A DNA stretch of 34,083 nucleotides, taken from IMG/VR virus record IMGVR_UViG_2698536651_000008, positions 1-34,083 of that record, one strand, 5' to 3'. Shown in pieces: positions 5,208-25,846 of this stretch. Position 1 is the first letter of the stretch, and every line of letters starts with the position of its first letter. This DNA comes from a virus. Lineage: Duplodnaviria; Heunggongvirae; Uroviricota; Caudoviricetes. Both the position numbers and the translations under genes were made by a program. The notes beneath the pieces were generated by a model, which was not told the DNA's origin, did not search any database, and saw nothing but the letters and a program-made list of their open reading frames with translations.

Positions 5208-5237
5208 TAATTATGTTTGACAAAGAGTAACAAGGGG

Positions 5238-5272
5238 ATGCTGACAAGGTTAAAAAACTTTCTTGTCAGCAT
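5238..5272. other. Perfect 11-bp inverted repeat with 13-nt loop just after A
   Basis: atgctgacaag (5238-5248) and cttgtcagcat (5262-5272) are exact reverse complements; no clear U-tract follows on either strand. Confidence 0.35.
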
Positions 5273-5387
5273 GGTTAACTGGAACGGTGAGAACAGAACA
5301 GCTATGAGTAATTTGAATACAACTAATGCCACTCTTCAATATGCGACTATTAGGAGGAGGATTATAATGAAAATAGTCACATAGAGT

Positions 5388-5420
5388 AAAATAAGGGCAA
5401 GGGGTATTCTTGCCCTTATT
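5388..5420 (-). terminator. Putative rho-independent terminator for the SIR2-like gene
   Basis: 12-bp hairpin aataagggcaag / cttgcccttatt immediately after the minus-strand stop (5424-5426), followed on the minus strand by a T-rich tract. Confidence 0.45.
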
Positions 5421-5423
5421 TAT

Positions 5424-8018
5424 TTAGGCAGCAATACCAATGTTATTTTTACATGTTGAGAGGGTATTTTTTGGGACTGCTGGCCAAGCTAAGTATCTAT
5501 AATAGTTCATATAATCCTTCTCTATAAGTGTTTTTAGCTGTTTGATAGCCTTAAGTTCATCATCGAGTAAAAAGAATGCACACATGGCTGCATCTCCTTT
5601 TGAATTGTTGTGTGCTAAAATTGAATTTATTTCATTCTTTTTGATTTCTTGTTTGTCTTTTTTCTTTGCTACTTCTCTATTGATTATTAAAACATCTTTT
5701 TCCCTGTACTCTTTAATTTTGTCAAGGTTTTCGTTAACTATTTTAATTGTTTCTTTATAATTTCCTGCAAGAAGGTTGGTATAAGCTTTTCCTAAAATAT
5801 AATCACTAAAACCGTAACCTTTATCATAAGCTTCATCAAGAAGGTTTATTGCTTTGTGATAATCGCCACTTAAGGATGAAATATCAGATTTTAATTTTAG
5901 GATGGTTATTTCAGATGTATCTCTTGGCAGGCTCTCAATAAAATCCTCAGCTAGTTTAATGTTGTCTTTATCAATTAATAAGATTTCTACGATGTTCTCT
6001 ATATGATTATTTCTCCACGGACAGTTCATGGCTTCTTTAGCTAGTTCAATACCAGTTTTGATATCTTTATTGCAACCGATTTCATATCGAGCTTTGAATA
6101 TCATGAAAGGAGCAATTCTGGCGATATCACCCTCTTCTTCATATGTGTCAATAAAATCTTTCATTAAATCCGGAGTGTTTTCATCGAAATCATTATGAAA
6201 TAAAGATAAATGAAGTTTTGTTAAATATTTTAATATATTTCTTTTTTTGTTTTTTGATGATGTTTTATATACGTTGGATAATGTTTTTATGCATGATAAT
6301 GTTTCTTCTTTTTTTTGTAATGAGCAGGTGAAGTCAGTATATAAAGACAAGTATGTCTCGTGAGTGGGATTGATTTCCTTCAATTTATCAAGAAGTTCTT
6401 GTGTTTGTTTATTACAATCTTCCTTGTCATGATTTGATTGATGCTTAGTTTGTATTGCATCATATTTTATCCTCCAAGCAGTATTGTCAAGATCCCTGCT
6501 TTGAAGTAAGCTTTTATCAATTAAATCATTTATTTCATTAAAGCTTATCAATTCCTCGTCATTATTTTCTAGATGTAAGATAGCAATTCTGCTTAAATGA
6601 TTCTTAAGATTTATGCTATATGGAAATTTTTCCAGCAATCCTTTGAGATAATTTATTTTTTCTTTCAGATTTGTGAATATATTTGTTCTCAATAGTGCGT
6701 AACTTATATTGAACTCATCAAGAGCGATCAGCTTATCACTAATTTCTAATGCTGACTTTGTTTCTTTTTGTTCTTCTTTTATTTGAATTAACCTGCGCAG
6801 ATATTTGGATTTAATGTTGTCACTATCAGCGTTATGGATTAATTCATTTAGTTTTGACTCTGCGGTTGGATATTCTTTATTTTTAATGAGATTATCAATA
6901 TGTAATAAGTTTTTGAACTCCTCTTCGGGGATTTTTTGATCGTCTAAATCACTTTGGGATAACTCGTCTATTAATGATGATATATCATGTTTCAAAGTTT
7001 GTTTTTTTAATTTTGAGATATCAGATTTGATAATATTATTTTTAGATAGCTTATACTCATCAGCTATAAAATTTTGGATCATCATCTCTCTTTTTGTGGA
7101 TTTTTGATTTCCACCTAAGGAGAGTGTGCAGCCTAATTCTAGGGCTAGTTCTGCCATCAATTCATCAAAACCTTCTATTTCAACCCAATACACTTTTTCT
7201 TGGCCTAGAAGCCTAATCAGCTCTGGTGGGATGGGATCATCTTTTCTTACGCACCAGTATACTCCATTTCGCAGATAGTCATCCTGTTTTAATAAATGTT
7301 TTAGAACATCCATGATAGAGCTATCATTACCAGCATAACCAACGAAAATCATTCCATATTCTTTAGTAAATTCAGTTAGCTTTTCGCGTGTGTTTCCTTC
7401 TAATGACTCGGTTTCTTTTAAAGAACTTTTTATACTATCAAATAAATAATCACCATGTAATTTTATTATTTTGGGTCTAGATGAAGTGATTGAAACACCT
7501 TTGATTGATGAATCATGCGCACATAATAAAGGTCTATCGGAAGAAAATTGATAAAATGCTTCATTTATTAAATCGTCAAAATTTGTTGTAAAGACAGTAT
7601 CAAAAAACTTTGATTCAAATAAATCAACAAGATAAGCATATCCAATTGAAGGTAATTTTTTATCTACCTGACGCTCAACAAATCTCCTGCGTTGAGATGG
7701 GAGGTCAAATTTCTTTTCAAAAAGAGAAGAGTACTCATTGTTCTGATCGTACCAATCAGGGTGGTTTTTAGATAACCATTTTTTAGCTTCTTCGGCATCA
7801 GCGTATTCTTGATTGGATAATCTTGTGTATATTTCAGCTCTCCATTTTGTAACTAGTTCTTGACCAGTTTTTATTCCAGATGTAACGGATGCGCCAGCTC
7901 CAAGAAAAAATGAATAGTTAGGAGATGTGCCTGATTTTATTTTGATATAATCAGCCAAATCTTTAACAGTTCTTTTTTTTGAAACTAGTTTCTCCTTGGT
8001 TTCATCACGCTCTGACAT
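5424..8018 (-). CDS. SIR2-like (SIR2_2-type) domain protein with long C-terminal helical/TPR-like repeat region, 864 aa; candidate anti-phage NADase effector
   Basis: N-terminal motifs FFLGAGASVTSG, FTTNFDDLINEA and KIIKLHGDY fit the glycine-rich, TTNxD and catalytic-His signatures of defence-type SIR2 domains (recognised by eye). The C-terminal ~600 aa is K/E/N/L-rich helical repeat. The gene is strongly AT-rich compared with the flanking phage genes, and sits at the P2 tin/old position. Confidence 0.6.
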   Translation of the reverse strand: MSERDETKEKLVSKKRTVKDLADYIKIKSGTSPNYSFFLGAGASVTSGIKTGQELVTKWRAEIYTRLSNQEYADAEEAKKWLSKNHPDWYDQNNEYSSLFEKKFDLPSQRRRFVERQVDKKLPSIGYAYLVDLFESKFFDTVFTTNFDDLINEAFYQFSSDRPLLCAHDSSIKGVSITSSRPKIIKLHGDYLFDSIKSSLKETESLEGNTREKLTEFTKEYGMIFVGYAGNDSSIMDVLKHLLKQDDYLRNGVYWCVRKDDPIPPELIRLLGQEKVYWVEIEGFDELMAELALELGCTLSLGGNQKSTKREMMIQNFIADEYKLSKNNIIKSDISKLKKQTLKHDISSLIDELSQSDLDDQKIPEEEFKNLLHIDNLIKNKEYPTAESKLNELIHNADSDNIKSKYLRRLIQIKEEQKETKSALEISDKLIALDEFNISYALLRTNIFTNLKEKINYLKGLLEKFPYSINLKNHLSRIAILHLENNDEELISFNEINDLIDKSLLQSRDLDNTAWRIKYDAIQTKHQSNHDKEDCNKQTQELLDKLKEINPTHETYLSLYTDFTCSLQKKEETLSCIKTLSNVYKTSSKNKKRNILKYLTKLHLSLFHNDFDENTPDLMKDFIDTYEEEGDIARIAPFMIFKARYEIGCNKDIKTGIELAKEAMNCPWRNNHIENIVEILLIDKDNIKLAEDFIESLPRDTSEITILKLKSDISSLSGDYHKAINLLDEAYDKGYGFSDYILGKAYTNLLAGNYKETIKIVNENLDKIKEYREKDVLIINREVAKKKDKQEIKKNEINSILAHNNSKGDAAMCAFFLLDDELKAIKQLKTLIEKDYMNYYRYLAWPAVPKNTLSTCKNNIGIAA

Positions 8019-8334
8019 ATTTACCCCCCATAAATTACATTGTTAAAAGTGAGAATAATCCTAAAGGTGATTTTTTTTACATTAAATTCGATTCTTTTTC
8101 GTTTTTCTTACTCGCGTTTTGTGACTGAGATCAAGCTATGAGGGAGAAATGCTTTTTTATTGTTCGTTCCAGGCTAATTGGCCTGATAGACTTTTACTAA
8201 TCATCTATGGTGTGCCATAGTGTTGAATGATTTTGCATGCATTTGTCAGGCGTTTACTAATGTTGTGATGTCTGGACTGGTGCGCTTTTGGTCATTTCAT
8301 GCACCTGCATTAAAATCGCCCCATGAAGCGGGCG

Positions 8335-8353
8335 GGCGAGGCGGGGAAAGCAC
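8335..8353. other. cos: cos site (19-nt P2 cohesive-end sequence GGCGAGGCGGGGAAAGCAC)
   Basis: Exact string ggcgaggcggggaaagcac present about 170 bp beyond the Q stop, which is where cos lies relative to Q in P2. The cos sequence is recalled from memory. Confidence 0.6.
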
Positions 8354-8494
8354 TGCGCGCTGGCGGTGGTGCTGATTTTATTTTTTCAGCGTCTGAGCGC
8401 GTCGTGAAGGCGTTTACTTGGCCTGCTGGGCGTTGGTGTGTCTGCGGGATTTTTTGTGCGGTGATGAGCGTGTGAGGGCGTGATGGCGGGGTGT

Positions 8495-8516
8495 AAAAAA
8501 GCCGCCCGCAGGCGGC
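8495..8516 (-). terminator. Rho-independent terminator for the Q-P operon
   Basis: On the minus strand: GCCGCC-TGCG-GGCGGC hairpin followed by TTTTTT, directly after the Q stop. Confidence 0.5.
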
Positions 8517-8521
8517 GATGT

Positions 8522-9556
8522 TCAGCCGTTGTCAGTGTCCAGTGAGTAGTTTTTAAAGCGGATGACCTCTTGACCGAGCCAGCCGTTTATTTCCCGAATC
8601 CTGTCCTGTAACGGGATAAGCTCATTGCGGACAAAGACCTTTGCCACTTTCTCAATATCGCCCAGCGACCCGACGTTCTCCGGCTTGCCTCCCATCAACT
8701 GAAAGGGGATGCGGTGCGCGTCCAGCAGGTCAGCGGCGCTGGCTTTTTTGATATTAAAAAAATCGTCCTTCGTTGCGACTTCACTGAGCGGGATAATTTT
8801 AATGCCGTCGGCTTTCCCCTGTGGGGCATAGAGAAACAGATTTTTAAAGTTGTTGCGGCCTTTCGACTTCACCATGTTTTCGCGGAGCATTTCGATATCG
8901 TTGCGATCCTGCACGGCATCAGTGACGTACATGATGTATCCGGCATGTGCGCCGTTTTCGTAATACTTGCGGCGGAACAACGTGGCCGACTCATTCAGCC
9001 AGGCAGAGTTAAGGGCGCTGAGATATTCCGGCAGGCCGTACAGCTCCTGATTAATATCCGGCTCCAGCAGGTGAAACACGGAGCCTGGCGTGAAAGGTGT
9101 CGGCTCGTTGAAGGACGGCACCCACCAGTAAACATCCTCTGCCACACCACGGCGGGTATATTTTGCCGGTGAGGTTTCCAGTCTGATGACCTTACCGGTG
9201 GTGCTGTATCGCTTTTCCAGAAACGCATTACCGAACACCAGAAAATCCAGCACAAAGCGGCTGAAATCCTGCTGGGAAAGCCACGGATGCGGGATAAATG
9301 TTGAGGCCAGAATATTACGTTTGACGTAAATCGGTGAGCTGTGATGCACGGCAGCACGCAGGCTTTTTGCCAGACCGGTAAAGCTGACCGGTGGTTCATA
9401 CCATCTGCCGTTACTGATGCACTCGACGTAATCCAGAATGTCACGGCGGTCGAGTACCGGTACCGGCTCGCCAAAGGTGAATGCTTCCATTTTCGGGGCG
9501 CTGGCGGTGATTGTTTTTGCCGCAGGTCGCGGTGTTTTCCCTTTTTTCTTGCTCAT
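8522..9556 (-). CDS. Q: Portal protein Q (344 aa)
   Basis: 344-aa ORF MSKKKGKTPRPAAKTITASAPKMEAFTFGEP... with P2 Q length and position; its start overlaps the P stop. Confidence 0.9.
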   Translation of the reverse strand: MSKKKGKTPRPAAKTITASAPKMEAFTFGEPVPVLDRRDILDYVECISNGRWYEPPVSFTGLAKSLRAAVHHSSPIYVKRNILASTFIPHPWLSQQDFSRFVLDFLVFGNAFLEKRYSTTGKVIRLETSPAKYTRRGVAEDVYWWVPSFNEPTPFTPGSVFHLLEPDINQELYGLPEYLSALNSAWLNESATLFRRKYYENGAHAGYIMYVTDAVQDRNDIEMLRENMVKSKGRNNFKNLFLYAPQGKADGIKIIPLSEVATKDDFFNIKKASAADLLDAHRIPFQLMGGKPENVGSLGDIEKVAKVFVRNELIPLQDRIREINGWLGQEVIRFKNYSLDTDNG

Positions 9557-11328
9557 CAGTAAAACTCCAGAATGGTGGATGTCAGCGGGGTGCTGATACC
9601 GGCGGTGAGTGGCTCATTTAACAGGGCGTGCATGGTCGCCCAGGCGAGGTCGGCGTGGCTGGCTTCCTCGCTGCGGCTGGCCTCATACGTGGCGCTGCGT
9701 CCGCTGCTGGTCATGGTCTTGCGGATAGCCATAAACGAGCTGGTGATGTCGGTGGCGCTGACGTCATATTCCAGACAGCCACGGCGGATGACGTCTTTTG
9801 CCTTGAGCACCATTGCGGTTTTCATTTCCGGCGTGTAGCGGATGTCGCGCGCGGCGGGATAGAACGAGCGCACGAGCTGGAACACGCCGACACCGAGGCC
9901 GGTGGCATCAATTCCGATGTATTCGACGTTGTATTTTTCGGTGAGTTTGCGGATGGATTCCGCCTGGGTGGCAAAGTCCATGCCTTTCCACTGGTGACGC
10001 TCAAGTATTCTGAATTTGCCACCGGCCACCACCGGCGGTGCCAGTACCACGCATCCGGCGCTGTCGCCACGGTGTGACGGGTCGTAACCAATCCATACCG
10101 GACGTGAGCCGAACGGATTTGCGGCAAACGGCGCATAGTCTTCCCATTCTTCCAGCGTGTCGACCATGCAGCGTTGCAGCTCCTCGAACGGGAACACCGA
10201 CGCCTTGTCGTCAACAAATTCACACATGAACAGGTTTTTAAAATCGTCGGCGCTGTTTTCACGTTTGAGCTGCTCAATGTCGAACAGTGTGCAGCCGCCT
10301 TTCAGGGCGTCCTCAATGGTGACAATCTGCCGCCACTGGCCGTCCGCACAGAGAAGACCACCGGCAAGGGCGTTATGACTGACGTCGATTTCCACACGTT
10401 CGGCGGCGCTGGCGCGTCCCCGGTTGAACAGTTCACCTGACCAGAACGGGTAGGCGTCGTGCGCCAGCGTGGACGGGGTGGAGAAATAGGTCGAGCGCAG
10501 GTGACTCTGTGAGGCCATACCTGATGCCACCTTACGCAGTACCTGAAAATTCGGGATCCAGAAAATCTCGTCGACGTACAGGTCGCCGTTATGGCTCTGT
10601 GCGGTGTTGGAGTTGGTGCCGAGAAAAATCAGTTTTGCGCCGTTATTGCCCAGGACAATCGGGTCACCGGTCAGGTCAACGTCAACCAGCCGGGCAAAGG
10701 CGATGATGTATTCGCGGAACACATACGCCTGCGTTTTACTGGCTGACAGAAAAATCTGGTTATGACCGGTTTTCAGGGCGCGCAGCAGCGCCTCGCGGGA
10801 AAAATAAAACGTTGCGCCAATCTGGCGGGATTTCAGGATATCGCGGATGCGGTGCTCAAGCCCGGCGCGATACCAGTGCAACTGGTAGTCGAAAGACTGC
10901 TCAAAGAAAATCTGCTCCAGCTTTTCGATGGCCTCGTCACTGAAAAAATTCTTTTTCGGTTTGCGACGCCCGCCTTTGTTGCGGTTAGCGACGTTCGGAT
11001 TAAGGTCTGCCTCGTTGCCGGTCTGACTGTAACGGTTGACCCGTGCCAGTCGTTCAATCTGGCGTCCCAGCAGGTCAATTTCCTTGAAATCACCGCCGGT
11101 TTTCTGCGGTTTGATGATGAGCTGGGTCAGCCGCGCTTCCAGACTCATTTCGACACGGCTGATGGGGGCAACGCTGTCCCAGCCGTCGCGCTGTTTCCAG
11201 CTCTGCACCGTCGGGCGTTTCATCTGCAACATGGCGGCAATCTGCGGCACGGAAAATCCCTGCCAGTACAGCAGCGCCGCCTGACGACGCGGGTCGTGTA
11301 AAAGAGTGGTGTCTGTGGTGATGGTCAT
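9556..11328 (-). CDS. P: Terminase large (ATPase) subunit P
   Basis: Start set at MTITTDTTLLHDPRRQAALLYWQGF... (590 aa) rather than the longer ORF-track start; large terminase-like protein upstream of the portal gene as in P2. Confidence 0.9.
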   Translation of the reverse strand: MTITTDTTLLHDPRRQAALLYWQGFSVPQIAAMLQMKRPTVQSWKQRDGWDSVAPISRVEMSLEARLTQLIIKPQKTGGDFKEIDLLGRQIERLARVNRYSQTGNEADLNPNVANRNKGGRRKPKKNFFSDEAIEKLEQIFFEQSFDYQLHWYRAGLEHRIRDILKSRQIGATFYFSREALLRALKTGHNQIFLSASKTQAYVFREYIIAFARLVDVDLTGDPIVLGNNGAKLIFLGTNSNTAQSHNGDLYVDEIFWIPNFQVLRKVASGMASQSHLRSTYFSTPSTLAHDAYPFWSGELFNRGRASAAERVEIDVSHNALAGGLLCADGQWRQIVTIEDALKGGCTLFDIEQLKRENSADDFKNLFMCEFVDDKASVFPFEELQRCMVDTLEEWEDYAPFAANPFGSRPVWIGYDPSHRGDSAGCVVLAPPVVAGGKFRILERHQWKGMDFATQAESIRKLTEKYNVEYIGIDATGLGVGVFQLVRSFYPAARDIRYTPEMKTAMVLKAKDVIRRGCLEYDVSATDITSSFMAIRKTMTSSGRSATYEASRSEEASHADLAWATMHALLNEPLTAGISTPLTSTILEFY

Positions 11329-11501
11329 GAATACCTCGCCGTGATGAATACACGGCAAGGCTACTGAGTCGCGCCCTGCGATTCGCTAAGGTGCTGTTGT
11401 GTCAGTGATAAGCCATCCGGGACTGATGGCGGAGGATGCGCATCGTCGGGAAACTGATGCCGACATGTGACTCCTCTAATCACTATTCAGGACTCCTGAC
11501 A
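11329..11501. promoter_or_regulatory. Divergent late promoter region between P and O (expected Ogr-dependent promoters)
   Basis: Position only: in P2 the divergent late promoters lie here. I could not confidently place the TGT-N12-ACA activator element by eye. Confidence 0.35.
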
Positions 11502-12356
11502 ATGGCAAAAAAAGTCTCAAAATTCTTTCGTATCGGCGTTGAGGGTGACACCTGTGACGGGCGTGTCATCAGTGCGCAGGATATTCAGGAAATGGCCGAA
11601 ACCTTTGACCCGCGTGTCTATGGTTGCCGCATTAACCTGGAACATCTGCGCGGCATCCTGCCTGACGGTATTTTTAAGCGTTATGGCGATGTGGCCGAAC
11701 TGAAGGCCGAAAAGATTGACGATGATTCGGCGCTGAAAGGCAAATGGGCGCTGTTTGCGAAAATCACCCCGACCGATGACCTTATCGCGATGAACAAGGC
11801 TGCGCAGAAGGTCTACACCTCAATGGAAATTCAGCCGAACTTTGCCAACACCGGCAAATGTTATCTGGTGGGTCTGGCCGTCACCGATGACCCGGCAAGC
11901 CTTGGCACGGAATACCTGGAATTCTGCCGCACGGCAAAACACAACCCTCTGAACCGCTTCAAATTAAGCCCTGAAAACCTGATTTCAGTGGCAACGCCTG
12001 TTGAGCTGGAATTTGAAGACCTGCCTGAAACCGTGTTCACCGCCCTGACCGAAAAGGTGAAATCCATTTTTGGCCGCAAACAGGCCAGCGATGACGCCCG
12101 TCTGAATGACGTGCATGAAGCGGTGACCGCTGTTGCTGAACATGTGCAGGAAAAGCTGAGCGCCACTGAGCAGCGACTCGCTGAGATGGAAACCGCCTTT
12201 TCCGCACTTAAGCAGGAGGTGACTGACAGGGCGGATGAAACCAGCCAGGCATTCAGCCGCCTGAAAAACAGTCTCGACCACACCGAAAGTCTGACCCAGC
12301 AGCGCCGCAGCAAGGCCACCGGCGGTGGCGGTGACGCCCTGATGACGAACTGCTGA
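11502..12356 (+). CDS. O: Capsid scaffolding protein O (284 aa)
   Basis: Start at MAKKVSKFFRIGVEGDTCDG...; length and position match P2 O. Confidence 0.85.
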   Translation: MAKKVSKFFRIGVEGDTCDGRVISAQDIQEMAETFDPRVYGCRINLEHLRGILPDGIFKRYGDVAELKAEKIDDDSALKGKWALFAKITPTDDLIAMNKAAQKVYTSMEIQPNFANTGKCYLVGLAVTDDPASLGTEYLEFCRTAKHNPLNRFKLSPENLISVATPVELEFEDLPETVFTALTEKVKSIFGRKQASDDARLNDVHEAVTAVAEHVQEKLSATEQRLAEMETAFSALKQEVTDRADETSQAFSRLKNSLDHTESLTQQRRSKATGGGGDALMTNC

Positions 12357-12414
12357 CCGGCGTCAGCCAGTCCGGGAAAACCTTCACGATTAACCCTTAA
12401 TTTCAGGAAAAACT

Positions 12415-13488
12415 ATGCGCCAGGAAACCCGCTTTAAATTTAATGCCTACCTGTCCCGTGTTGCCGAACTGAACGGCATCGACGCCGGTGATGTGTCGAA
12501 AAAATTCACCGTTGAACCGTCGGTCACCCAGACCCTGATGAACACCATGCAGGAGTCCTCTGACTTTCTGACCCGCATCAACATTGTGCCGGTCAGCGAA
12601 ATGAAAGGGGAAAAAATTGGTATTGGTGTCACCGGCTCCATCGCCAGCACCACAGACACCGCCGGTGGCACCGAGCGTCAGCCGAAGGACTTCTCGAAGC
12701 TGGCGTCAAACAAGTACGAATGCGACCAGATTAACTTCGATTTTTATATCCGCTACAAAACGCTTGACCTGTGGGCGCGTTATCAGGATTTCCAGCTCCG
12801 TGTCCGTAACGCCATTATCAAACGCCAGTCCCTTGATTTAATCATGGCCGGTTTTAACGGCGTGAGGCGTGCCGAAACCTCTGACCGCAGCAGTAACCAG
12901 ATGCTGCAGGATGTGGCGGTCGGCTGGCTGCAGAAATACCGCAATGAAGCCCCGGCGCGCGTGATGAGCAAGGTTACTGACGAGGAAGGTCACACGACCT
13001 CTGAGGTCATCCGCGTGGGTAAGGGCGGTGATTATGCCAGCCTCGATGCACTGGTGATGGATGCGACCAACAACCTGATTGAGCCGTGGTATCAGGAAGA
13101 CCCTGACCTTGTGGTGATTGTGGGGCGTCAGCTACTGGCGGACAAGTATTTCCCCATCGTCAACAAGGAGCAGGACAACAGCGAGATGCTGGCCGCTGAT
13201 GTCATCATCAGCCAGAAACGCATCGGTAACCTGCCGGCGGTACGCGTCCCGTACTTCCCGGCGGATGCGATGCTCATCACGAAGCTGGAAAACCTGTCCA
13301 TCTACTACATGGATGACAGCCATCGCCGCGTGATTGTGGAAAACCCGAAACTAGACCGCGTGGAGAACTACGAGTCAATGAACATTGATTACGTGGTGGA
13401 AGACTACGCCGCCGGTTGTCTGGTGGAAAAAATTAAGGTCGGTGACTTCTCCACACCGACTAAAGTGACCGCAGAGCCGGGAGCGTAA
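12415..13488 (+). CDS. N: Major capsid protein N (357 aa)
   Basis: 357-aa ORF following the scaffold gene, with SD; matches P2 N length. Confidence 0.9.
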   Translation: MRQETRFKFNAYLSRVAELNGIDAGDVSKKFTVEPSVTQTLMNTMQESSDFLTRINIVPVSEMKGEKIGIGVTGSIASTTDTAGGTERQPKDFSKLASNKYECDQINFDFYIRYKTLDLWARYQDFQLRVRNAIIKRQSLDLIMAGFNGVRRAETSDRSSNQMLQDVAVGWLQKYRNEAPARVMSKVTDEEGHTTSEVIRVGKGGDYASLDALVMDATNNLIEPWYQEDPDLVVIVGRQLLADKYFPIVNKEQDNSEMLAADVIISQKRIGNLPAVRVPYFPADAMLITKLENLSIYYMDDSHRRVIVENPKLDRVENYESMNIDYVVEDYAAGCLVEKIKVGDFSTPTKVTAEPGA

Positions 13489-13491
13489 CCG

Positions 13492-14235
13492 ATGACGAGT
13501 CCCGCACAGCGCCACATGATGCGGGTCTCGGCAGCGATGACCGCGCAGCGGGACGCCGCCCCGCTGCGACATGCAACTGTCTATGAGCAGATGCTGGTCA
13601 AGCTGGCCGCAGACCAGCGCACACTGAAAGCGATTTATTCAAAAGAGCTGAAGGCCGCGAAAAAACGCGAACTGCTGCCGTTCTGGTTGCCGTGGGTGAA
13701 CGGTGTGCTGGAGCAGGGCAAAGGTGCACAGGATGACATTCTGATGACGGTCATGCTGTGGCGTCTGGATACCGGCGATATTGCCGGTGCGCTGGAGATT
13801 GCCCGTTATGCCCTGAAGTACGGTCTGACCATGCCGGGTAAACACCGCCGCACCCCGCCGTACATGTTCACCGAGGAGGTGGCGCTCGCGGCCATGCGCG
13901 CCCACGCTGCCGGTGAGTCTGTGGATACCCGCCTGCTGACGGAGACCCTTGCACTGACCGCCACGGCAGACATGCCTGATGAAGTGCGCGCAAAGCTGCA
14001 CAAAATCACCGGTCTGTTTCTGCGTGACGCTGGTGATGCCGCCGGTGCACTGGCTCACCTGCAACGTGCGACACAGCTCGACTGTCAGGCAGGCGTCAAA
14101 AAAGAGATTGAACGACTGGAGCGGGAGCTGAAACCGAAGCCGGAGCCGCAGCCCAAAGCGGCCACCAGTGCCACGCGTAAGACCCGGAGTGCGACACCGG
14201 CAAAACGTGGACGCCCGAAAAAGAAAGCCAGTTAA
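13492..14235 (+). CDS. M: Terminase small (endonuclease) subunit M (247 aa)
   Basis: 247-aa ORF with a basic lysine-rich C-terminus; position and length match P2 M. Confidence 0.85.
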   Translation: MTSPAQRHMMRVSAAMTAQRDAAPLRHATVYEQMLVKLAADQRTLKAIYSKELKAAKKRELLPFWLPWVNGVLEQGKGAQDDILMTVMLWRLDTGDIAGALEIARYALKYGLTMPGKHRRTPPYMFTEEVALAAMRAHAAGESVDTRLLTETLALTATADMPDEVRAKLHKITGLFLRDAGDAAGALAHLQRATQLDCQAGVKKEIERLERELKPKPEPQPKAATSATRKTRSATPAKRGRPKKKAS

Positions 14236-17257: not shown

Positions 17258-17702
17258 GTTTAAGCGTTTTGAAGACAGGCTGACCGGACTGATTGAGTCG
17301 CTGTCACCGTCAGGGCGTCGGCGACTGAGCGCCGAACTGGCGAAGCGCCTGCGGCAGAGTCAGCAGCGTCGGGTGATGGCACAGAAAGCCCCGGACGGCA
17401 CACCCTACGCGCCACGCCAGCAGCAGAGCGCCAGAAAAAAGACCGGTCGTGTTAAGCGAAAAATGTTTGCGAAACTTATCACCAGTCGCTTTTTGCATAT
17501 CCGCGCCAGCCCGGAACAGGCATCAATGGAATTTTACGGCGGGAAGTCACCGAAAATCGCCAGCGTGCATCAGTTCGGCCTGTCGGAAGAAACCCGGAAA
17601 GACGGTAAGAAAATTGATTATCCGGCGCGTCCTCTGCTCGGCTTTACCGGTGAGGATGTGCAGATGATTGAAGAGATTATCCTGGCTCACCTCGACCGTT
17701 AG
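17250..17702 (+). CDS. S: Tail completion protein S (150 aa)
   Basis: 150-aa ORF overlapping the R stop; matches P2 S length and order. Confidence 0.75.
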   Translation: MNEFKRFEDRLTGLIESLSPSGRRRLSAELAKRLRQSQQRRVMAQKAPDGTPYAPRQQQSARKKTGRVKRKMFAKLITSRFLHIRASPEQASMEFYGGKSPKIASVHQFGLSEETRKDGKKIDYPARPLLGFTGEDVQMIEEIILAHLDR

Positions 17703-17768
17703 TTGTGCCATTCCTGACACCTCATCGTCACATTGCCGCCGGTATGACCCGGCGGCATCCTTCCCGTT

Positions 17769-18404
17769 ATGAACACTCTCGCAAATATTCAGGAACTCGC
17801 GCGCGCACTGCGCAACATGATCCGCACCGGCCTTGTCGTCGAAACCGACCTTAACGCCGGTCGCTGCCGTGTGCAGACCGGCGGCATGTGCACTGACTGG
17901 CTTCAGTGGCTGACCCATCGTGCCGGTCGTTCGCGCACATGGTGGGCACCTTCCGTGGGGGAGCAGGTGCTGATTCTGGCCGTGGGCGGTGAACTCGACA
18001 CGGCGTTCGTTCTGCCGGGGATTTATTCCGGCGATAACCCCGCGCCGTCTGCGTCGGCGGATGCCCTGCATATCCGTTTCCCTGACGGGGCGGTGATTGA
18101 ATATGAACCTGAAACCAGTGCACTCACGGTAAGCGGAATTAAAACGGCCAGCGTGACGGCTTCTGATTCTGTTACTGCCACGGTGCCGGTGGTCATGGTG
18201 AAAGCATCAACCCGCGTCACCCTGGACACACCGGAGGTGGTCTGCACCAACAGGCTGATTACCGGCACGCTGGAAGTGCAGAAGGGCGGGACGATGCGCG
18301 GCAACATTGAACACACCGGCGGTGAACTCTCATCAAACGGTAAGGTACTGCATACCCATAAACACCCCGGCGACAGCGGCGGCACAACCGGGAGCCCTCT
18401 ATGA
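17769..18404 (+). CDS. V: Baseplate spike protein V (211 aa)
   Basis: 211-aa ORF; matches P2 V length and order. Confidence 0.85.
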   Translation: MNTLANIQELARALRNMIRTGLVVETDLNAGRCRVQTGGMCTDWLQWLTHRAGRSRTWWAPSVGEQVLILAVGGELDTAFVLPGIYSGDNPAPSASADALHIRFPDGAVIEYEPETSALTVSGIKTASVTASDSVTATVPVVMVKASTRVTLDTPEVVCTNRLITGTLEVQKGGTMRGNIEHTGGELSSNGKVLHTHKHPGDSGGTTGSPL

Positions 18405-18748
18405 CAGCGCGTTATCTCGGAATGAATCGCAGTGATGGCCTGACGGTCACTGACCTTGAGCATATCAGCCAGAGTATCGGCGATATCCTGCGCACACCGG
18501 TCGGCTCACGGGTGATGCGTCGTGATTACGGCTCGTTGCTGGCGTCAATGATTGACCAGCCGCAGACCCCGGCGCTTGAGTTGCAGATTAAGGTCGCCTG
18601 TTACATGGCGGTGCTGAAATGGGAACCCCGCGTCACGCTGTCATCTGTCACCACGGCGCGCAGTTTTGACGGGCGAATGACGGTCACGTTAACCGGCCAG
18701 CACAACGACACCGGCCAGCCACTTTCGTTAACCATCCCTGTGAGTTGA
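18401..18748 (+). CDS. W: Baseplate protein W (gp25-like, 115 aa)
   Basis: 115-aa ORF overlapping the V stop; matches P2 W. Confidence 0.85.
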   Translation: MTARYLGMNRSDGLTVTDLEHISQSIGDILRTPVGSRVMRRDYGSLLASMIDQPQTPALELQIKVACYMAVLKWEPRVTLSSVTTARSFDGRMTVTLTGQHNDTGQPLSLTIPVS

Positions 18749-18752
18749 AACC

Positions 18753-19661
18753 ATGCCGATTATCGACCTGAACCAGCTACCCGCACCGGATGTGGTCGAG
18801 GAGCTGGACTTTGAAACCATTCTCGCCGAACGCAAGGCGACACTGATTTCCCTTTACCCGGAAGACCAGCAGGAGGCGGTCGCCCGTACCCTGACGCTGG
18901 AATCTGAGCCTCTCGTCAAACTGCTGGAGGAAAATGCTTATCGTGAGCTTATCTGGCGTCAGCGTGTGAATGAGGCTGCACGGGCGGTGATGCTGGCCTG
19001 TGCAGCCGGTAATGACCTTGATGTGATTGGTGCCAATTACAACACCACGCGCCTGATTATCACCCCGGCAGATGATTCGACCATCCCGCCGACACCGGCA
19101 GTGATGGAATCTGACACCGATTATCGTCTGCGTATTCAGCAGGCGTTTGAAGGTTTAAGCGTCGCCGGGTCGGTGGGTGCCTATCAGTATCATGGCCGCA
19201 GTGCCGACGGGCGTGTCGCGGATATCTCTGTCACCAGTCCGTCTCCGGCCTGCGTCACCATCTCTGTGCTGTCACGTGAGAATAACGGTGTGGCATCCGA
19301 AGACCTGCTGGCTGTGGTACGTAACGCCCTTAATGGCGAGGATGTCAGGCCGGTGGCCGACCGCGTGACCGTGCAGTCTGCCGCCATCGTTGAATACCAG
19401 ATAAACGCCACGCTTTACCTTTACCCTGGTCCCGAAAGCGAACCCATCCGCGCGGCCGCAGTAAAAAAACTGGAAGCGTATATCACGGCACAGCACCGGC
19501 TGGGGCGCGACATCCGTCTGTCTGCCATTTATGCCGCTTTGCATGTGGAAGGCGTGCAGCGTGTCGAACTGACTGCACCACTGGCTGACATCGTGCTCAA
19601 CAGTACGCAGGCGTCTTTCTGTACCGAATACCGCGTCGTGACCGGAGGCTCGGATGAGTGA
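18753..19661 (+). CDS. J: Baseplate wedge protein J (302 aa)
   Basis: 302-aa ORF; matches P2 J length and order. Confidence 0.85.
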   Translation: MPIIDLNQLPAPDVVEELDFETILAERKATLISLYPEDQQEAVARTLTLESEPLVKLLEENAYRELIWRQRVNEAARAVMLACAAGNDLDVIGANYNTTRLIITPADDSTIPPTPAVMESDTDYRLRIQQAFEGLSVAGSVGAYQYHGRSADGRVADISVTSPSPACVTISVLSRENNGVASEDLLAVVRNALNGEDVRPVADRVTVQSAAIVEYQINATLYLYPGPESEPIRAAAVKKLEAYITAQHRLGRDIRLSAIYAALHVEGVQRVELTAPLADIVLNSTQASFCTEYRVVTGGSDE

Positions 19662-20184
19662 TTCGCGACTGCTGCCGACCGGCTCATCACCGCTTGAAGT
19701 TGCTGCCGCAAAAGCCTGTGCGGAAATTGAAAAAACGCCGGTCAGTATTCGTGAGCTGTGGAACCCGGATACCTGTCCGGCAAATCTGCTGCCGTGGCTG
19801 GCGTGGGCGTTTTCGGTCGACAGGTGGGATGAAAAGTGGCCGGAAGCGACAAAACGCGCCGTTATCCGCGATGCGTATTTCATTCATTGTCATAAAGGCA
19901 CTGTCGGCGCAATCCGGCGTGTGGTGGAGCCGCTCGGCTATCTCATTAACGTAAAGGAATGGTGGGAGACAAACGACCCGCCCGGAACCTTTCGCCTTGA
20001 TATCGGTGTGCTGGAAAGCGGTATCACGGAGGAGATGTATCTGGAAATGGAACGGCTGATTGCCGATGCCAAACCCGCAAGTCGCCACCTTATCGGCCTG
20101 AACATTATCCAGGACATTCCCGGCTATCTGTATACAGGCGGTGTGGTCTGTGATGGTGATGTTATTACTGTTTATCCCGGATAA
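19654..20184 (+). CDS. I: Baseplate protein I (176 aa)
   Basis: 176-aa ORF overlapping the J stop; matches P2 I. Confidence 0.8.
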   Translation: MSDSRLLPTGSSPLEVAAAKACAEIEKTPVSIRELWNPDTCPANLLPWLAWAFSVDRWDEKWPEATKRAVIRDAYFIHCHKGTVGAIRRVVEPLGYLINVKEWWETNDPPGTFRLDIGVLESGITEEMYLEMERLIADAKPASRHLIGLNIIQDIPGYLYTGGVVCDGDVITVYPG

Positions 20185-20194
20185 GTGAGAAACA

Positions 20195-22813
20195 ATGAGC
20201 ACGAAATTTAAAACCGTTATCACTACTGCCGGAGCCGCAAAGCTGGCAGCCGCCACTGTCCCCGGCGGGAAAAAAGTAAACCTGTCTGCAATGGCCGTGG
20301 GTGACGGTAATGGCAAATTGCCGGTGCCGGATGCCGGTCAGACGAAACTGGTGCATGAGGTCTGGCGTCACGCTCTGAATAAAGTCAGCGTGGATAACAA
20401 GAATAAAAACTATATCGTGGCTGAACTGGTTGTACCGCCCGAAGTGGGCGGCTTCTGGATGCGTGAGCTTGGTCTGTATGACGATGCCGGAACACTGATT
20501 GCGGTATCCAACATGGCAGAAAGCTATAAGCCAGAACTGGCTGAAGGCTCCGGACGTGCGCAGACCTGCCGCATGGTTATTATTCTCAGCAACGTGGCGT
20601 CCGTTGAGCTGAGTATTGATGCCAGCACGGTGATGGCGACGCAGGATTACGTCGATGACAAAATCGCAGAGCATGAGCAGTCCCGCCGCCATCCTGACGC
20701 CACGCTGACAGAAAAAGGTTTTACTCAGTTAAGCAGTGCAACAAACAGCACCAGTGAAAAGCTGGCGGCAACGCCAAAGGCAGTAAAAGCAGCCTATGAC
20801 AATGCTGAGAAACGTCTGCAGAAAGACCAGAACGGTGGCGATATTCCAGATAAGGACGCTTTTCTGGACAATATTGGCGTTACCAGCCTGACGTTTATGA
20901 AAAACAACGGCGAAATGCCGGTTGATGCTGATCTGAATACATTTGGTCCTGTTAAGGCTTATTCAGGTATCTGGTCTAAAGCAACATCCACCAACGCAAC
21001 ACTGGAGAAAAATTTCCCTGAAGACGGTGCAGTCGGTGTGCTTGAGGTATTCAATGGCGGTAATTTTGCAGGAATGCAGCGTTATACCACCAGAACAGGC
21101 AATGTTTATATGCGCAACCTTTCTGGCACCTGGAATGGCTCAGACGGTCCGTGGAGCTACTGGCGTCAGATTCAGTCAGCAACACGCCCCCTTAGTACAA
21201 CCATTGACCTGAACACGCTCGGAGACGCAGAGCATCTTGGCTTATGGCGAAACAGTAGTGGCTCTATCGCTTCATTTGACCGCAACTATCCGGAAGAAGG
21301 AAGTTATGGTCAGGGACTCCTTGAAGTTCTTGAAGGTGGTGGGTACTCACGCATGCAACGCTACACGACCCGCCGTGGGAATGTATATGTTCGCTGCCTT
21401 TCTGCTACATGGAATGCAGAGAATCCACAGTGGGAACCGTGGTTAAGAGTCGGTCATCAGTCAGAGAGTCGTTATTACGACGGGGATTTGAATGATGTGA
21501 CTTCACCAGGTATTTACAGCGTTACAGGGAAGGCGACAAACGGTCCAATGCAGGATACCGCTGGAGCGACACTGCTTGGGATACTGGAAGTAATCAGACG
21601 TTTTGATGGTGTATCTGTCTGGCAGCGTTACACAACCACAGGGAAAGCAGAAACCACAAAGGGGCGCACTTTTGAGCGCGTCTATACCGGCAGCTCGTGG
21701 AGCGAATGGCGGGAAGTCTACACCTCGTATTCACTTCCCCTGAATCTGGGTATCGGCGGTGCAGTGGCAAAACTCACCAGCCTGGACTGGCAGACCCACG
21801 ACTTTGTGCCGGGCAGTCTGATAACCGTTCGGCTTGATAACATGACCAATATTCCCGACGGTATGGACTGGGGCGTCATTGATGGCAACCTGATAAACAT
21901 CGCAGTTGGTCCGAGTGATGATTCCGGTACTGGGCGCTCAATGCATGTATGGCGCAGCACTGTAAGTAAAGCGAACTACCGCTTTTTTATGGTGCGTATT
22001 TCAGGAAATCCGGGAAGCCGCACGATCACGACAAGACGTGTGCCAATTATCGACGAAGCTCAGACATGGGCGGCGAAACAAACCTTCAGCGCCGGTCTTT
22101 CAGGCGAACTGTCCGGCAATGCGGCTACAGCTACAAAGCTGAAAACGGCAAGGGCGATTAATGGCGTAACGTTTGACGGGACGAAAGATATTGAAGCGTT
22201 TCCGCCAGGTGTTCCGTTGCCGTGGCCATCAGATACACCACCTGCGGGCTATGCAATTATGCAGGGGCAGACGTTTGATAAGGCTGCATATCCGAAACTG
22301 GCTGTTGCCTATCCTTCAGGTGTTATTCCTGATATGCGCGGCTGGACAATCAAGGGCAAACCTGCCAGTGGGCGTGCCGTATTGTCACAGGAACAGGACG
22401 GGATTAAATCGCATACTCACAGCGCCAGTGCGTCAAATACGGATTTGGGAACGAAAACAACCAGTTCATTTGATTACGGGACAAAAACAGTCAGTACGTT
22501 TAACCACGGCACAAAATCAACCAATACTTCTGGCAATCATACACATACCGTCGGTTTTGCTGTGAGCGTGCAATCAGGCGGTGCAGATTATGGTGTTCCG
22601 CGAAGTGATAAAGGTGCTACGACTACAAGTTCATCAGGCAATCATGCACATACAGTCGACATTGGAGCACATAACCATACTGTTGGTATTGGTGCACATT
22701 CACACACGGTTGCTATTGGCTCACACGGGCACTCTATTACCGTTAATGCTACAGGTAATACAGAAAATACCGTAAAAAACATCGCATTTAACTATATTGT
22801 GAGGCTTGCATAA
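20195..22813 (+). CDS. H: Tail fibre protein H, enlarged mosaic variant (872 aa)
   Basis: The N-terminal ~200 aa ([25 protein letters not shown]...) look like the P2 H baseplate-proximal region, but the protein is longer than the P2 H I recall. It has three tandem ~80-90 aa repeats (...[22 protein letters not shown]... / ...[22 protein letters not shown]... / ...[22 protein letters not shown]...) and a C-terminal His-rich GxHxHTV repeat array. Confidence 0.85.
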
Positions 22814-23391
22814 TGGCTTTCAGAATGAGTGCAGAAGCACAAACTATCCGCGTATTTAATTTACTTGATGGAACCAATGAATTTATTGGGGAAAGTGACG
22901 CGTATATTCCACCGTATACAGGTCTGCCTGCAAACAGTACAGATATTGCGCCGCCTGATATACCGGCTGGTTATGCAGCCGTTTTCAATGCAGATGAAAT
23001 AAAATGGGAGTTGATGGAAGATCATCGCGGAAAGACTGTCTACGAAACGAAAACGGGAGCAGCCATTTATATTTCTGAACTTGGCGCATTACCTCCAGAC
23101 GTGACAGCCATTTCCCCGGATGGGGATTATCAGAAATGGAACGGAAATGCGTGGGTGAATGATGAGAATGCAGAGCGTGATGCGCTTGTCAGAGCGGCTG
23201 ACTCTCAGAAGAAAGAGCTGATTGCATATGCAGGTGAAATTATTGCCACGCTGCAGGATGCTGTCGATTTAGATATGGCTACCGAGGAAGAAAAGTTAAG
23301 CCTGACACACTGGAAAAAATACCGTGTGCTACTGAATCGCGTTCAGCCGGAAGATGCTCCGGATATAGAATGGCCTGAAATGCCACAATAA
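22813..23391 (+). CDS. G: Tail fibre assembly chaperone G (192 aa)
   Basis: ORF starting at the H stop (TAATG overlap), in the P2 G position. Confidence 0.8.
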
Positions 23392-24085
23392 ATCGTATTA
23401 GATCTGGTGTGAGATTACTCATCTATGGCACAGAGTAAAACCTAATCTGACAGTCCGCTCTGTGCCTGTAGCGGAAGTATTGTGCTTGCGACAGCTATGG
23501 AAAACGCACTGCGAACGGTGAATCCGGAGAGAAAAGATTATCTATTCTTAAGCTCGGATCACTACGGCGTCCGTCGTACGGTGTGGTCGGGGCATCTTAA
23601 TAGCATCGACGCAGAACGTTATTTGCGCAATGTACGGTCGGTAATCGCGATCATCCAATCATTTGCGTAAACCAACTCTTGCATTGGTGTACCATCCTGC
23701 ATGGGGAATAATCTCCGAGTCATGCATGCTGTCAATACGGCTCTCGCGGGACTCTTGCTGAGAAACTCAACCCATCTTCACTAAAAATGCAGTATCCTGC
23801 GAAGTTCTTATTTCTAATTCACTTGATAAAAATCTTTATAGTTCTCCTTTCCGTAAAACTTCCTGCGTTATTTCTTCTTTTCAGCCCCATCAATACATCG
23901 AGAAGGCATGCGAAGCATTAAAAAAACTCTCTAAATTTCCGAAAAATAGGAAATTTGCTTGGTATAATCGAGATTGAGATACACATGTTCTCATACCCCC
24001 TGCCGGGCAAGCACGGTAGGGATTATTTTCAATCAATATGGAGAGGAGCCTATGGCTTAATCTGTTTATAGAAGGAGTAGTAAAA

Positions 24086-24796
24086 ATGACCAAATGGACA
24101 TTTGAAAAAAATATTGTTGCACAAGGAATTGCTGCAAAAAATAAATCTGGACGTATTCCGGCGATTGACATTCAACCAGGCTCTGGTCTTTTGAAGCGTC
24201 ATCAAATGGCGTTGTATGAAAGCGCAATCAACTTCAGAGCGCCAATTGAGGAAAATGAATGTGGGCGATACAACCCCCCAGGGGGATGTGTGGCGGTATG
24301 GTATGCCTCTGACTCTGCGTTAACGGCGGCGGCAGAAGCTTATGGGCGTTTGCTCCATCTCGAAGGGACGATTTCTTATCCTGAATCGGTACTTTCACAA
24401 CACTATATGTGCTCTGTGGATGTCATGAGGCCAGTGAAAGTGATCGATGTTGTAGCGCTCTGTGAGTTGTTACATATTCCTTTGGATAGCTTAGAGAACG
24501 AGGATTACACTTTTACTCAATGGCTAATGGAACATCTTTATACACATTTCGGGCGTGACTATGACGGGATAGCCTATACCTCAAGGCATAAACGCTATAA
24601 ACGCTGTTATGCCTTTTGGGAACGACCGGATAGTACACCAGCCTTTACCGATACCCCTCAGGGGATGGTGCCTTATGCCAGTTACATCGAAAATGACGAA
24701 GGTATCTTCCCTAAAGGGTGGCACAAAGGAACGATGTCAGGTGAAGAGATGTTCGAAGAACTGCTTGGATTCGAAATTACGCCAGAACCAATGTAA
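24086..24796 (+). CDS. RES-domain protein (putative NAD+-targeting toxin/effector), about 236 aa
   Basis: Motifs GRYNPPGGCVAVWYASDSALTAAAEA and DGIAYTSRH...CYAFWE resemble the conserved Arg / Glu / Ser blocks of RES-domain toxins (recognised by eye). Start chosen at MTKWTF (ATG 24086) with SD GAAGGAG; AT-rich cargo at the P2 Z/fun position. Confidence 0.55.
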   Translation: MTKWTFEKNIVAQGIAAKNKSGRIPAIDIQPGSGLLKRHQMALYESAINFRAPIEENECGRYNPPGGCVAVWYASDSALTAAAEAYGRLLHLEGTISYPESVLSQHYMCSVDVMRPVKVIDVVALCELLHIPLDSLENEDYTFTQWLMEHLYTHFGRDYDGIAYTSRHKRYKRCYAFWERPDSTPAFTDTPQGMVPYASYIENDEGIFPKGWHKGTMSGEEMFEELLGFEITPEPM

Positions 24797-24798
24797 AC

Positions 24799-24828
24799 CA
24801 AAGAGGGGCTGGCTAGCCCCTCTTTTTA
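24799..24828. terminator. Bidirectional rho-independent terminator between the convergent cargo genes
   Basis: AAA-agaggggc-tggcta-gcccctct-TTTTT: 8-bp GC-rich stem flanked by an A-run and a T-run. Confidence 0.5.
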
Positions 24829-24834
24829 AAACAA

Positions 24835-25479
24835 TTAACTGGATACATGATTTCCGAACTGTTTAGCGGCACGGATAGCCAGACTAAGTTCACTATTTTT
24901 AGCGCCGTCCTGCATGATTTGAATCGGCGTCTTTTTCAGGCCTTCGCTATTAACCTCTATTGGTGATTTCAGCACACCCAACCTCAGCATTGGATGGGTA
25001 TTCTCGTCAAATGCCGCCATTACGTCTTCAAAGCCGGGAATCAGCCCGTTATCTGTGAACTGAAATTTCGGGAAAATAAAATCACCGTTCTGCTTGAATG
25101 CTAAAAGCTTGTTCTTCTTAACGCGAATGTTGATCGCCTGGCGGGTGATTCCAAGAATATCGACCACGTCATTTACCTTTAGCGTACCGCCTAACTCCTG
25201 AAGCCCACGATAAAATCGTTCCAGATTTTCGCGACGACGGCGCACTTTACGTAGTTCGTAGTCATTGACACGAGTCTTCTGTTCGAGTTGAACGGTGTAG
25301 AGCAATTGCATCAGTGAACTATCATCCAGCGTGATAGCATTAATTGCCTGGTTTTTGTCTTCAAATTCAGGCATCAGGGAAATAGCGAGGTTGTTAATTC
25401 TTTTCAGAAGGTTCAACTGGTATTCATTCAGCTTAGCTGAAGTGTTGGTTTCCCTTTCTGCTGCGGTGTGTTTGATCAT
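24835..25479 (-). CDS. HTH-containing hypothetical protein (about 214 aa), possible Xre-like partner of the RES protein
   Basis: Start at MIKHTAAER... with SD GGAGGTG. Central helix-turn-helix-like segment LKVNDVVDILGITRQAINIRVKKNKLLAFKQNG; C-terminal ~80 aa of unknown function. Convergent with the RES gene. Confidence 0.5.
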   Translation of the reverse strand: MIKHTAAERETNTSAKLNEYQLNLLKRINNLAISLMPEFEDKNQAINAITLDDSSLMQLLYTVQLEQKTRVNDYELRKVRRRRENLERFYRGLQELGGTLKVNDVVDILGITRQAINIRVKKNKLLAFKQNGDFIFPKFQFTDNGLIPGFEDVMAAFDENTHPMLRLGVLKSPIEVNSEGLKKTPIQIMQDGAKNSELSLAIRAAKQFGNHVSS

Positions 25480-25846
25480 TGTGCACCTCCATTTGACGAT
25501 TATCATAATTCATTTTATTGGAATGGTCAAATTCAAGGGCAAGCAATCTATGGTCAATCAAGGCGTAATTCTTTGGCATAGACCCGATTGACTCATGCAC
25601 CGTGATGTTAGCATGCACATAATTATGGTTATCCACACCTCGTACAAATCAGTCTGCCAGACTTGATAGCTTTTTGGCTATGTAAATTGTCAGTCGTAAA
25701 ATTAGTGAGTACAAATCAGGACAGGTGGGCGAATTGCCCGCCTTTTCTTTATCTGTTGTTTCATCCACTGACCAGCCAGGTCAAATAGCGTCTCATGTAC
25801 TACCCAACGGAAAATAGTTGCACCCATTAACCACGGAGTTAAACGG

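Follow-up and report, generated by a model that had tools for sequence, protein, structure and literature searches.

Two cargo hotspots of a P2-like prophage hold a SIR2-TPR protein and a RES toxin-antitoxin-like module, putative NAD+-using systems that assort independently

The viral DNA analysed here (IMG/VR record IMGVR_UViG_2698536651_000008, 34,083 nt, hereafter the window) contains a P2-like prophage with two cargo sites, one between replication gene A and portal gene Q (hotspot 1, cargo 5187-8286), the other between tail fibre assembly gene G and tail sheath gene FI (hotspot 2, cargo 23392-25846). The span from position 5208, the first base past gene A, to 25846, the last base ahead of FI, covers both. 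These are the same two genome positions as those of the tin/old and Z/fun loci of P2, but the cargo in the window is neither tin/old nor fun. The gpA|gpQ (tin/old) site has been described as an anti-phage hotspot of P2 with variable cargo beside cos (PMC9122126), and the G|FI (fun) locus as a defence hotspot that gave three experimentally selected defence systems besides fun (PMC9519451). In the window, hotspot 1 holds a single gene for an 864-aa SIR2-TPR protein, and hotspot 2 holds a convergent pair of genes, one for a RES-domain protein and the other for its putative antitoxin. An earlier note on this DNA had called a SIR2-like domain at the first site and a RES-like domain at the second and had considered the two enzymes to be unrelated. 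All of this holds up, with both domain calls well clear of chance, the first enzyme having a sirtuin fold and the second an ADP-ribosyltransferase (ART)/RES fold, and both genes do lie at published hotspots. The 214-aa partner gene, which is part of the RES module, was not mentioned there. We favour, with moderate confidence, an explanation in which the two hotspots were filled independently by separately mobile modules using nicotinamide adenine dinucleotide (NAD+), a SIR2-TPR sensor-effector of abortive infection and a RES module resembling a toxin-antitoxin (TA) system.

The hotspot 1 island is AT-rich. The GC fraction drops to 0.28-0.38 over about 5200-8100, the window as a whole having a GC content of 51%, and the island contains only one long open reading frame (ORF) between A and Q, with 31% GC. 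This ORF (5424-8018, minus strand) encodes a SIR2 NADase domain at about residues 30-300, followed by a TPR-like alpha-solenoid at about residues 360-864. The Pfam family SIR2_2 is matched well above its cut-off (E 9.1e-15; 55.4 bits, cut-off 24.5 bits) and is also matched by all 33 homologues that we collected. In PADLOC, the best matches are models of SIR2 proteins associated with prokaryotic Argonautes (pAgo; E 3e-61), the other match being the candidate system PDC-S65, for which a literature search was without result. All PADLOC matches are confined to the SIR2 domain: the similarity to SIR2-APAZ proteins mostly ends at residues 291-348, with one weaker model extending to residue 477. The only relative of solved structure found by sequence is Sir2-APAZ of the SPARSA system (GsSir2, PDB chains 8jkz/8in8), with E 2e-23 for the single sequence and 5e-29 for the family profile. 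In the alignment with the PDB sequence, N142 and H186 of GsSir2 correspond to N146 and H188 of the window protein. Replacement of either GsSir2 residue with alanine abolishes NADase activity (PMC10781750). N146 and H188 are invariant among the 33 homologues, whose identity goes down to 37%.

The C-terminal half is far more variable. Identity among distant homologues is 67% in the SIR2 domain and 28% in the C-terminal part, as is usual when a conserved effector is joined to a fast-evolving sensor. Matches to TPR families are weak in the window protein and clear in its relatives (TPR_2, 1e-6; TPR_14, 5e-7), and a profile search with the family also matches TPR structures in this half, the TPR-like repeats covering about residues 370-520 and 650-800. 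The architecture, 860-890 aa long, is kept across Enterobacterales, Aeromonas, Vibrio, Shewanella and Pseudoalteromonas, and the gene is solitary wherever we examined its neighbourhood (Escherichia coli, Aeromonas, Vibrio and Atlantibacter). The protein belongs to PHROG 14359, listed as of function unknown, and among 50,697 deposited phage genomes only partial matches to its SIR2 domain were found. In two Atlantibacter strains (loci L027 and L028), the gene is located on a small island together with genes for a CI-like repressor and an integrase; the following gene codes for an OLD-like ATPase in one case and for AbiTii in the other. This island looks like another swap-in defence hotspot.

Depletion of NAD+ by SIR2 and TIR enzymes is a major theme in bacterial immunity, and three of the known SIR2 systems invite comparison with the window protein. 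The closest SIR2 domain by sequence is that of SPARSA Sir2-APAZ, including the aligned Asn/His dyad. However, the window protein has no APAZ domain, there is no short pAgo gene next to it on the island, and its C-terminal half is TPR-like; activation dependent on guide RNA and target DNA is thus impossible for it. Avs5 and NLR-like SIR2-STAND-TPR proteins likewise have a SIR2 effector at the N-terminus and TPR-type repeats at the C-terminus, and SIR2 variants of NLR-like proteins were found at the P4 hotspot (PMC9122126). Unlike them, the SIR2-TPR protein shows neither a Walker A motif nor any NTPase family among its Pfam matches, and STAND/Avs membership was rejected because a P-loop is lacking. 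DSR2 of Bacillus subtilis is organised like the window protein, with a SIR2 NADase at the N-terminus and an alpha-solenoid sensor at the C-terminus of one polypeptide. The NADase of DSR2 is switched on when its C-terminal domain binds a phage tail tube protein (PMC11850899). The window protein differs in that its SIR2 domain is of the pAgo-associated subfamily, its sensor is TPR-like and its length is 864 aa. DSR models were absent among its PADLOC matches at E <= 0.1, as was any DSR2 chain from the PDB profile search at E <= 1. Both PADLOC and PDB are assumed to include DSR entries. Nonetheless, DSR2 is probably the best analogy for how SIR2-TPR might work. In such a scheme, the variable TPR-like solenoid would recognise a phage-derived trigger, probably a protein, and this recognition would activate the N-terminal NADase (Asn146/His188), leading to NAD+ hydrolysis and aborted infection in a DSR2-like manner. 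In other words, the protein appears to be a SPARSA-type SIR2 joined to a TPR-like sensor, a new variant for which we found no phage test in the literature.

At hotspot 2, the RES-domain protein is encoded by a full ORF at 24038-24796 (plus strand). Its probable start is at 24086, since RefSeq annotates it so in homologous prophages whose DNA is about 99% identical across the hotspot; the resulting product (24086-24796) is 236 aa long and is a putative NAD+-consuming toxin. The Pfam family RES is matched above its cut-off (E 2.4e-12; 47.6 bits, cut-off 23.2 bits), and the name given in RefSeq, purely by annotation, is 'RES family NAD+ phosphorylase'. Searches of the PDB by sequence or profile gave no relative. 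We therefore turn to structure: the AlphaFold model (pLDDT 87.5, pTM 0.84) matched MbcT best in Foldseek (E 2.5e-7), followed by NatT (E 9e-4), Res of Pseudomonas putida, VPA0770, ParT (E 0.2-1.2) and the ART domains of diphtheria toxin. R38, R61 (within GRYNP), Y73 and E84 do not vary among 26 RES homologues, in which S166 is conserved to at least 90%. The spacings between R38, R61, Y73 and E84 are 23/12/11 residues versus 20/11/11 in MbcT. The residues of MbcT in question are R27, R47, Y58, E69 and S126, the first three of which are essential for toxicity (PMC6436930). Beyond the common fold, the window protein has extensions of about 50 aa at the N-terminus and about 40 aa at the C-terminus.

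The partner gene (24835-25479, minus strand) encodes 214 aa comprising an N-terminal helical region, a winged helix-turn-helix (HTH) similar to that of Rv2175c (residues ~97-147) and a C-terminal helical domain. The protein on its own falls below every Pfam model, and sequence and profile searches of the PDB gave only a marginal match to Rv2175c, a DNA-binding protein of Mycobacterium tuberculosis (PDB 2kfs), to which it is about 13% identical and from which it differs by the additional N-terminal helical region. To our knowledge, Rv2175c is not encoded beside a RES toxin. Members of the partner family and its remote relatives match the middle and C-terminal domains of Xre-MbcA-ParS proteins, the similarity to the antitoxins MbcA, ParS and NatR being weak. 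The HTH belongs to the Rv2175c/HTH_17 type. HTH_3 is missing from the Pfam families recorded for the partner family, and only two of 69 remote relatives match it, weakly. With moderate confidence, we take the partner to be an antitoxin or regulator, probably distant kin of the RES antitoxins with a different DNA-binding head. The stop codons of the two genes are separated by a 38-bp spacer that holds a perfect hairpin that resembles a bidirectional intrinsic terminator (24800-24825), with 11-bp arms AAAGAGGGGCT/AGCCCCTCTTT and runs of A and T alongside. The hairpin is retained with altered stem sequences in Proteus, Enterobacter and Pantoea.

The pair is conserved as a unit. A RES protein of 236-237 aa and a partner of 213-214 aa, convergent and with stops 13-38 bp apart, were found in nine loci of unrelated context: next to ArdC/IS66 in E. 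coli A28, by the ter operon in Proteus, in a mobile region of Enterobacter, near an AAA_21/AAA_15 ATPase gene in Pantoea, between exbD and an MFS transporter gene in Kalamiella, on three metagenomic contigs and in the window prophage. Given this conservation, the pair is a self-contained, TA-like mobile module, with a minimal size of ~1.6 kb set by the Kalamiella copy. We also considered that partner homologues might pair with other toxins. This was rejected, as the Proteus and Enterobacter copies all adjoin a 236-aa RES gene, and the shorter list of RES homologues is due to search sensitivity.

With the type II RES-Xre TA systems (MbcTA, P. putida Res-Xre, NatRT, ParST and VPA0770/0769), the module shares the RES fold and the Arg/Tyr/Glu/Ser constellation, as well as a tightly linked DNA-binding partner in a small mobile two-gene unit. 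It differs from them in several respects. The partner is an Rv2175c/HTH_17 winged helix rather than an Xre HTH_3 protein and carries an N-terminal helical region of ~95 aa; the two genes face each other, each with a promoter of its own, and have a bidirectional terminator in common, instead of forming an antitoxin-first operon; the RES protein is 236 aa long with N- and C-terminal extensions; and the module is located in a prophage defence hotspot. The RES gene and its convergent Rv2175c-like partner thus appear, from sequence comparison, to be a new variant of RES toxin systems. As for how the module could work, each gene would be transcribed from its own promoter into the common terminator, the partner would bind and/or repress RES, and loss or titration of the partner, when a phage takes over or the element is lost, would leave RES free to consume NAD+ and stop growth.

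By analogy with MbcT and NatT, the chemistry would most likely be phosphorolysis. The earlier note had counted the RES protein, like SIR2-TPR, as an attacker of the NAD+ pool. Of the RES toxins characterised, four in number, three are degraders of NAD+ (PMC6436930, PMC11535050). Not all RES enzymes deplete NAD+, however, since ParT ADP-ribosylates a protein. The window protein could be a ParT-like mono-ADP-ribosyltransferase acting on a specific protein, with NAD+ as a co-substrate and without depletion of the pool, in which case 'NAD+-targeting' would be a misnomer at hotspot 2. RES belongs to the ART superfamily (PMC9503650), the structural matches include ParT (6d0h/6d0i) at a target-normalised TM-score of about 0.6, and the terminal extensions could bind a target. 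We regard this as unlikely, because the best folds are those of the NAD+ phosphorylases MbcT and NatT, with much better E values than that of ParT, and because degradation of NAD+ prevails among the characterised RES toxins; the RefSeq name points the same way.

A harder question is what the module is for. Abortive infection or superinfection exclusion appears to be the most likely role, with pure element addiction a close second. Defence is favoured by the experimental support for the G|FI locus as a hotspot and by the survival of the pair in decayed prophages. Phage-borne RES-HTH pairs were noted earlier by Iyer et al., who suggested superinfection exclusion or addiction (PMC9503650). The alternative is that the RES pair serves purely for addiction, by post-segregational killing, or for persistence, and that only SIR2-TPR is a defence. 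This would agree with the ~1.6-kb insertions, which lie amid housekeeping genes in Kalamiella (exbD/MFS) and Proteus (ter operon) and also by ArdC/IS66, and with the persistence of the pair in decayed P2 remnants (L031 and L032). The RES-Xre system knaAT stabilises a Klebsiella plasmid (PMC10896132), and the RES toxin NatT promotes persistence and lacks a phage phenotype (PMC11535050). On the other hand, the G|FI locus is where defence systems were selected experimentally, the Pantoea pair lies near an ATPase gene, many TA modules serve both roles, and the proposal of Iyer et al. includes superinfection exclusion. We take a purely addictive or persistence role seriously while considering it the less probable reading for this prophage. 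The earlier note's view of the RES protein as an effector stands for the domain itself, though not for a lone gene: it is half of a TA-like pair that could equally be an addiction module.

Several observations weigh against the explanation that we favour. Convergent transcription is atypical of type II TA pairs. Neither RES nor its partner matched any PADLOC model, which also agrees with an addiction module, and neither has a homologue in the 50,697 deposited phage genomes. The correspondence of R38, R61, Y73, E84 and S166 to the MbcT residues is suggested by spacing and invariance rather than by an explicit superposition. NatT had no phage phenotype against more than 50 phages, and no RES TA system had been implicated in immunity (PMC11535050); our literature searches gave no later exception to the latter statement. 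They also gave no enzymology or phage assay for either the SIR2-TPR family or the family of RES and its partner. Finally, the SIR2 protein cloned by Rousset et al. (pFR88) was considered as a possible member of the SIR2-TPR family and rejected, being a different protein from the P4 locus.

The earlier note had further proposed that the two enzymes might represent layered or redundant defences; our data give no sign of a layered or co-selected system. To address co-occurrence, we used 5,426 complete E. coli genomes, the flanks of hotspot 1 being matched in about 2,156. The SIR2 gene was found in 19 genomes and the RES module in 11, at the P2 site in 10 of these, with no accession common to both sets. 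The chance expectation is 19 x 10 / 2,156, or about 0.09, and since independent assortment predicts so few co-occurrences, the observed zero fits chance. Each cargo is found with different cargo elsewhere: all three RES prophages examined (L004, L009 and L010) have a 610-aa DUF7380 protein at hotspot 1, and three SIR2 prophages have three different cargoes at hotspot 2. The DUF7380 protein is another uncharacterised single-gene cargo. The tables of Rousset et al. (PMC9122126) contain SIR2+HerA and KAP-NTPase+RES arrangements at hotspot 1, and the combination seen in the window is not among them. The arrangements of a RES-domain protein with a KAP NTPase (Table S5A, WP_077758113) imply that RES domains occur at both P2 hotspots. 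The main text of that paper never mentions the RES domain, all whole-word matches being abbreviated journal names.

The history of the pairing can also be read from close relatives. The segment 5187-8286 is the only difference between the window and RES prophage L004 and the sole non-collinear one. In the early region and the island, the window and the SIR2-bearing remnant L005 match at 98-99%. By these comparisons, one recombination event at hotspot 1 is the simplest history. The exact RES protein is present in 115 index blocks of the collection, with all ten listed places being P2 G|FI junctions or P2 remnants, whereas the exact SIR2 protein is present on two contigs only; it is encoded in assembly GCA_001748535.1. 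The pairing is best read as chance mix-and-match of independently mobile modules at the hotspots and not as a coupled system. A co-selected, layered abortive-infection arsenal, in which different triggers deliberately converge on the NAD+ pool, would be consistent with the location of both cargoes at validated defence hotspots, with two unrelated enzymes that are both plausible NAD+ consumers and with different modes of sensing, a TPR solenoid versus antitoxin-type control. However, the absence of co-occurrence, the different partnerships of each cargo elsewhere and the unequal abundance of the two exact proteins make it distinctly unlikely in our view, and a single instance cannot demonstrate selection. 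The motif of two NAD+ cargoes shows that effector redundancy can arise by chance, and it is not evidence of design.

Both cargoes persist in heavily decayed P2 remnants (SIR2 in L003 and L005; RES in L031 and L032) in which most structural genes are deleted or frameshifted. Such retention suggests selection on the cargo itself, via either host benefit or addiction. It bears as well on the possibility that at least one of the two genes is an inert passenger with no present function, AT-rich cargo that is decaying or silenced. The SIR2 island, at 31% GC, would probably be silenced by H-NS, as judged from its GC content, and the closest SIR2 copies in complete genomes reside in degraded prophages. 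Yet neither ORF is truncated and the catalytic residues of each are intact, both families are constant in length across genera, and both genes are kept as neighbouring phage genes decay, which argues for selection. We therefore consider inert cargo very improbable.

The RES/winged-helix pair might be the first RES system in anti-phage immunity, a convergent, antitoxin-gated NAD+ phosphorylase converting NAD+ into ADP-ribose-1''-phosphate, the SIR2 product being ADP-ribose. This proposal is tentative and, in our estimate, fairly unlikely. If it were true, RES and SIR2-TPR would attack the same metabolite by different chemistry and upon different triggers. Phages possess pathways of NAD+ reconstitution that use ADP-ribose and nicotinamide, and rebuilding NAD+ from these two compounds would rescue one arm only. 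Regardless of the outcome, a RES module recurring at a validated prophage defence hotspot offers a compact test case for RES enzymes in immunity, and SIR2-TPR, as a widespread single-gene family, would broaden the DSR2 paradigm, in which a protein is sensed directly.

The RES gene is preceded by a promoter and a structured 5' leader (23960-24085, plus strand). The leader includes an extended -10 element TGGTATAAT (23960-23968), a hairpin (23998-24021) whose consensus fold has three compensated pairs, a near-invariant 36-nt block (24031-24066) and a Shine-Dalgarno sequence GAAGGAG (24071-24077) ahead of the start. It is conserved, and better so than the coding sequence, in six of the nine independent loci (the window, L002, L011, L015, L019 and L021), which suggests post-transcriptional or operator control of the putative toxin. 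The leader as a universal part of the module was rejected, given its absence from the remaining three loci (Kalamiella, L022 and L023). The 36-nt block could fold into a second stem-loop and contains a Shine-Dalgarno-like GGAG followed by a mini-ORF of two codons, ATG GCT TAA (24052-24060). On the other strand, the partner gene has a Shine-Dalgarno sequence GGAGG 6 nt ahead of its ATG and a promoter-like site TTGACC-17-TATGAT (25502-25530, minus strand), identified by a consensus scan only, with 10 of 12 matches. An imperfect 27-nt inverted repeat (70% complementary, 25482-25541) overlaps this site, and a 13-mer containing TCAATCAA occurs both in the RES leader (24024-24036) and upstream of the partner promoter (25549-25561). 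The inverted repeat and the 13-mer might serve the winged-helix partner as operators, or might have arisen by chance. Repeats common to the RES leader and the partner promoter were discarded as short and unconvincing. The flank of hotspot 2 also contains a 62-aa ORF (23482-23670, plus strand), a transposase remnant matching PHROG transposase families at E 1.7e-6 and 3e-5 over the C-terminal portions of the profiles only; intact IS3 transposases occupy the site in other E. coli genomes. NCBIfam gave no useful match for SIR2-TPR, RES or the partner.

The backbone around the two hotspots is that of a P2-like prophage. The order of its genes (C, cox, B, A, cargo, Q, P, O, N, M, L, X, holin, lysis genes, R, S, V, W, J, I, H, G, cargo, FI, FII, E, T, U, D, ogr) is collinear with that of annotated E. 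coli prophages, and the late-gene region is complete. Positions 8287-32537 form one 24.25-kb alignment with prophage L004 (strain SA186) at 96.6% identity, and the late region is therefore intact. Hotspot 1 is bordered on the left by the ORF of replication endonuclease gene A (2892-5207, plus strand), which is 97% identical to the 'replication endonuclease' of L004, and on the right by that of portal gene Q (8522-9556, minus strand), which is annotated as 'phage portal protein' in both L003 and L004. Just past Q, on the stretch of conserved P2 backbone that separates it from the island, lies a terminator-like hairpin (8501-8516, minus strand; GCCGCCTGCGGGCGGC followed by a T-run), and Table S2 of PMC9122126 lists a P2 old-tin clone in which the same hairpin sequence comes after Q. 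The borders of hotspot 2 are the ORFs of tail fibre assembly gene G (22813-23391, plus strand; annotated in L001 and L004) and of FI (25847-27037, plus strand; annotated as 'phage tail sheath protein').

The prophage is integrated at the E. coli yegR / cyaR-trhP(yegQ) site, its integrase being truncated by the left edge of the window. An Rfam scan found no match within either hotspot and identified the small RNA CyaR/RyeE (32554-32639, minus strand; 100.7 bits) directly to the right of ogr; trhP/yegQ (32722-34083, minus strand) then takes up the right end of the window. Because CyaR and trhP/yegQ adjoin ogr, the site is the same as that of the degraded SIR2-bearing remnant L005, which sits between yegR and trhP.

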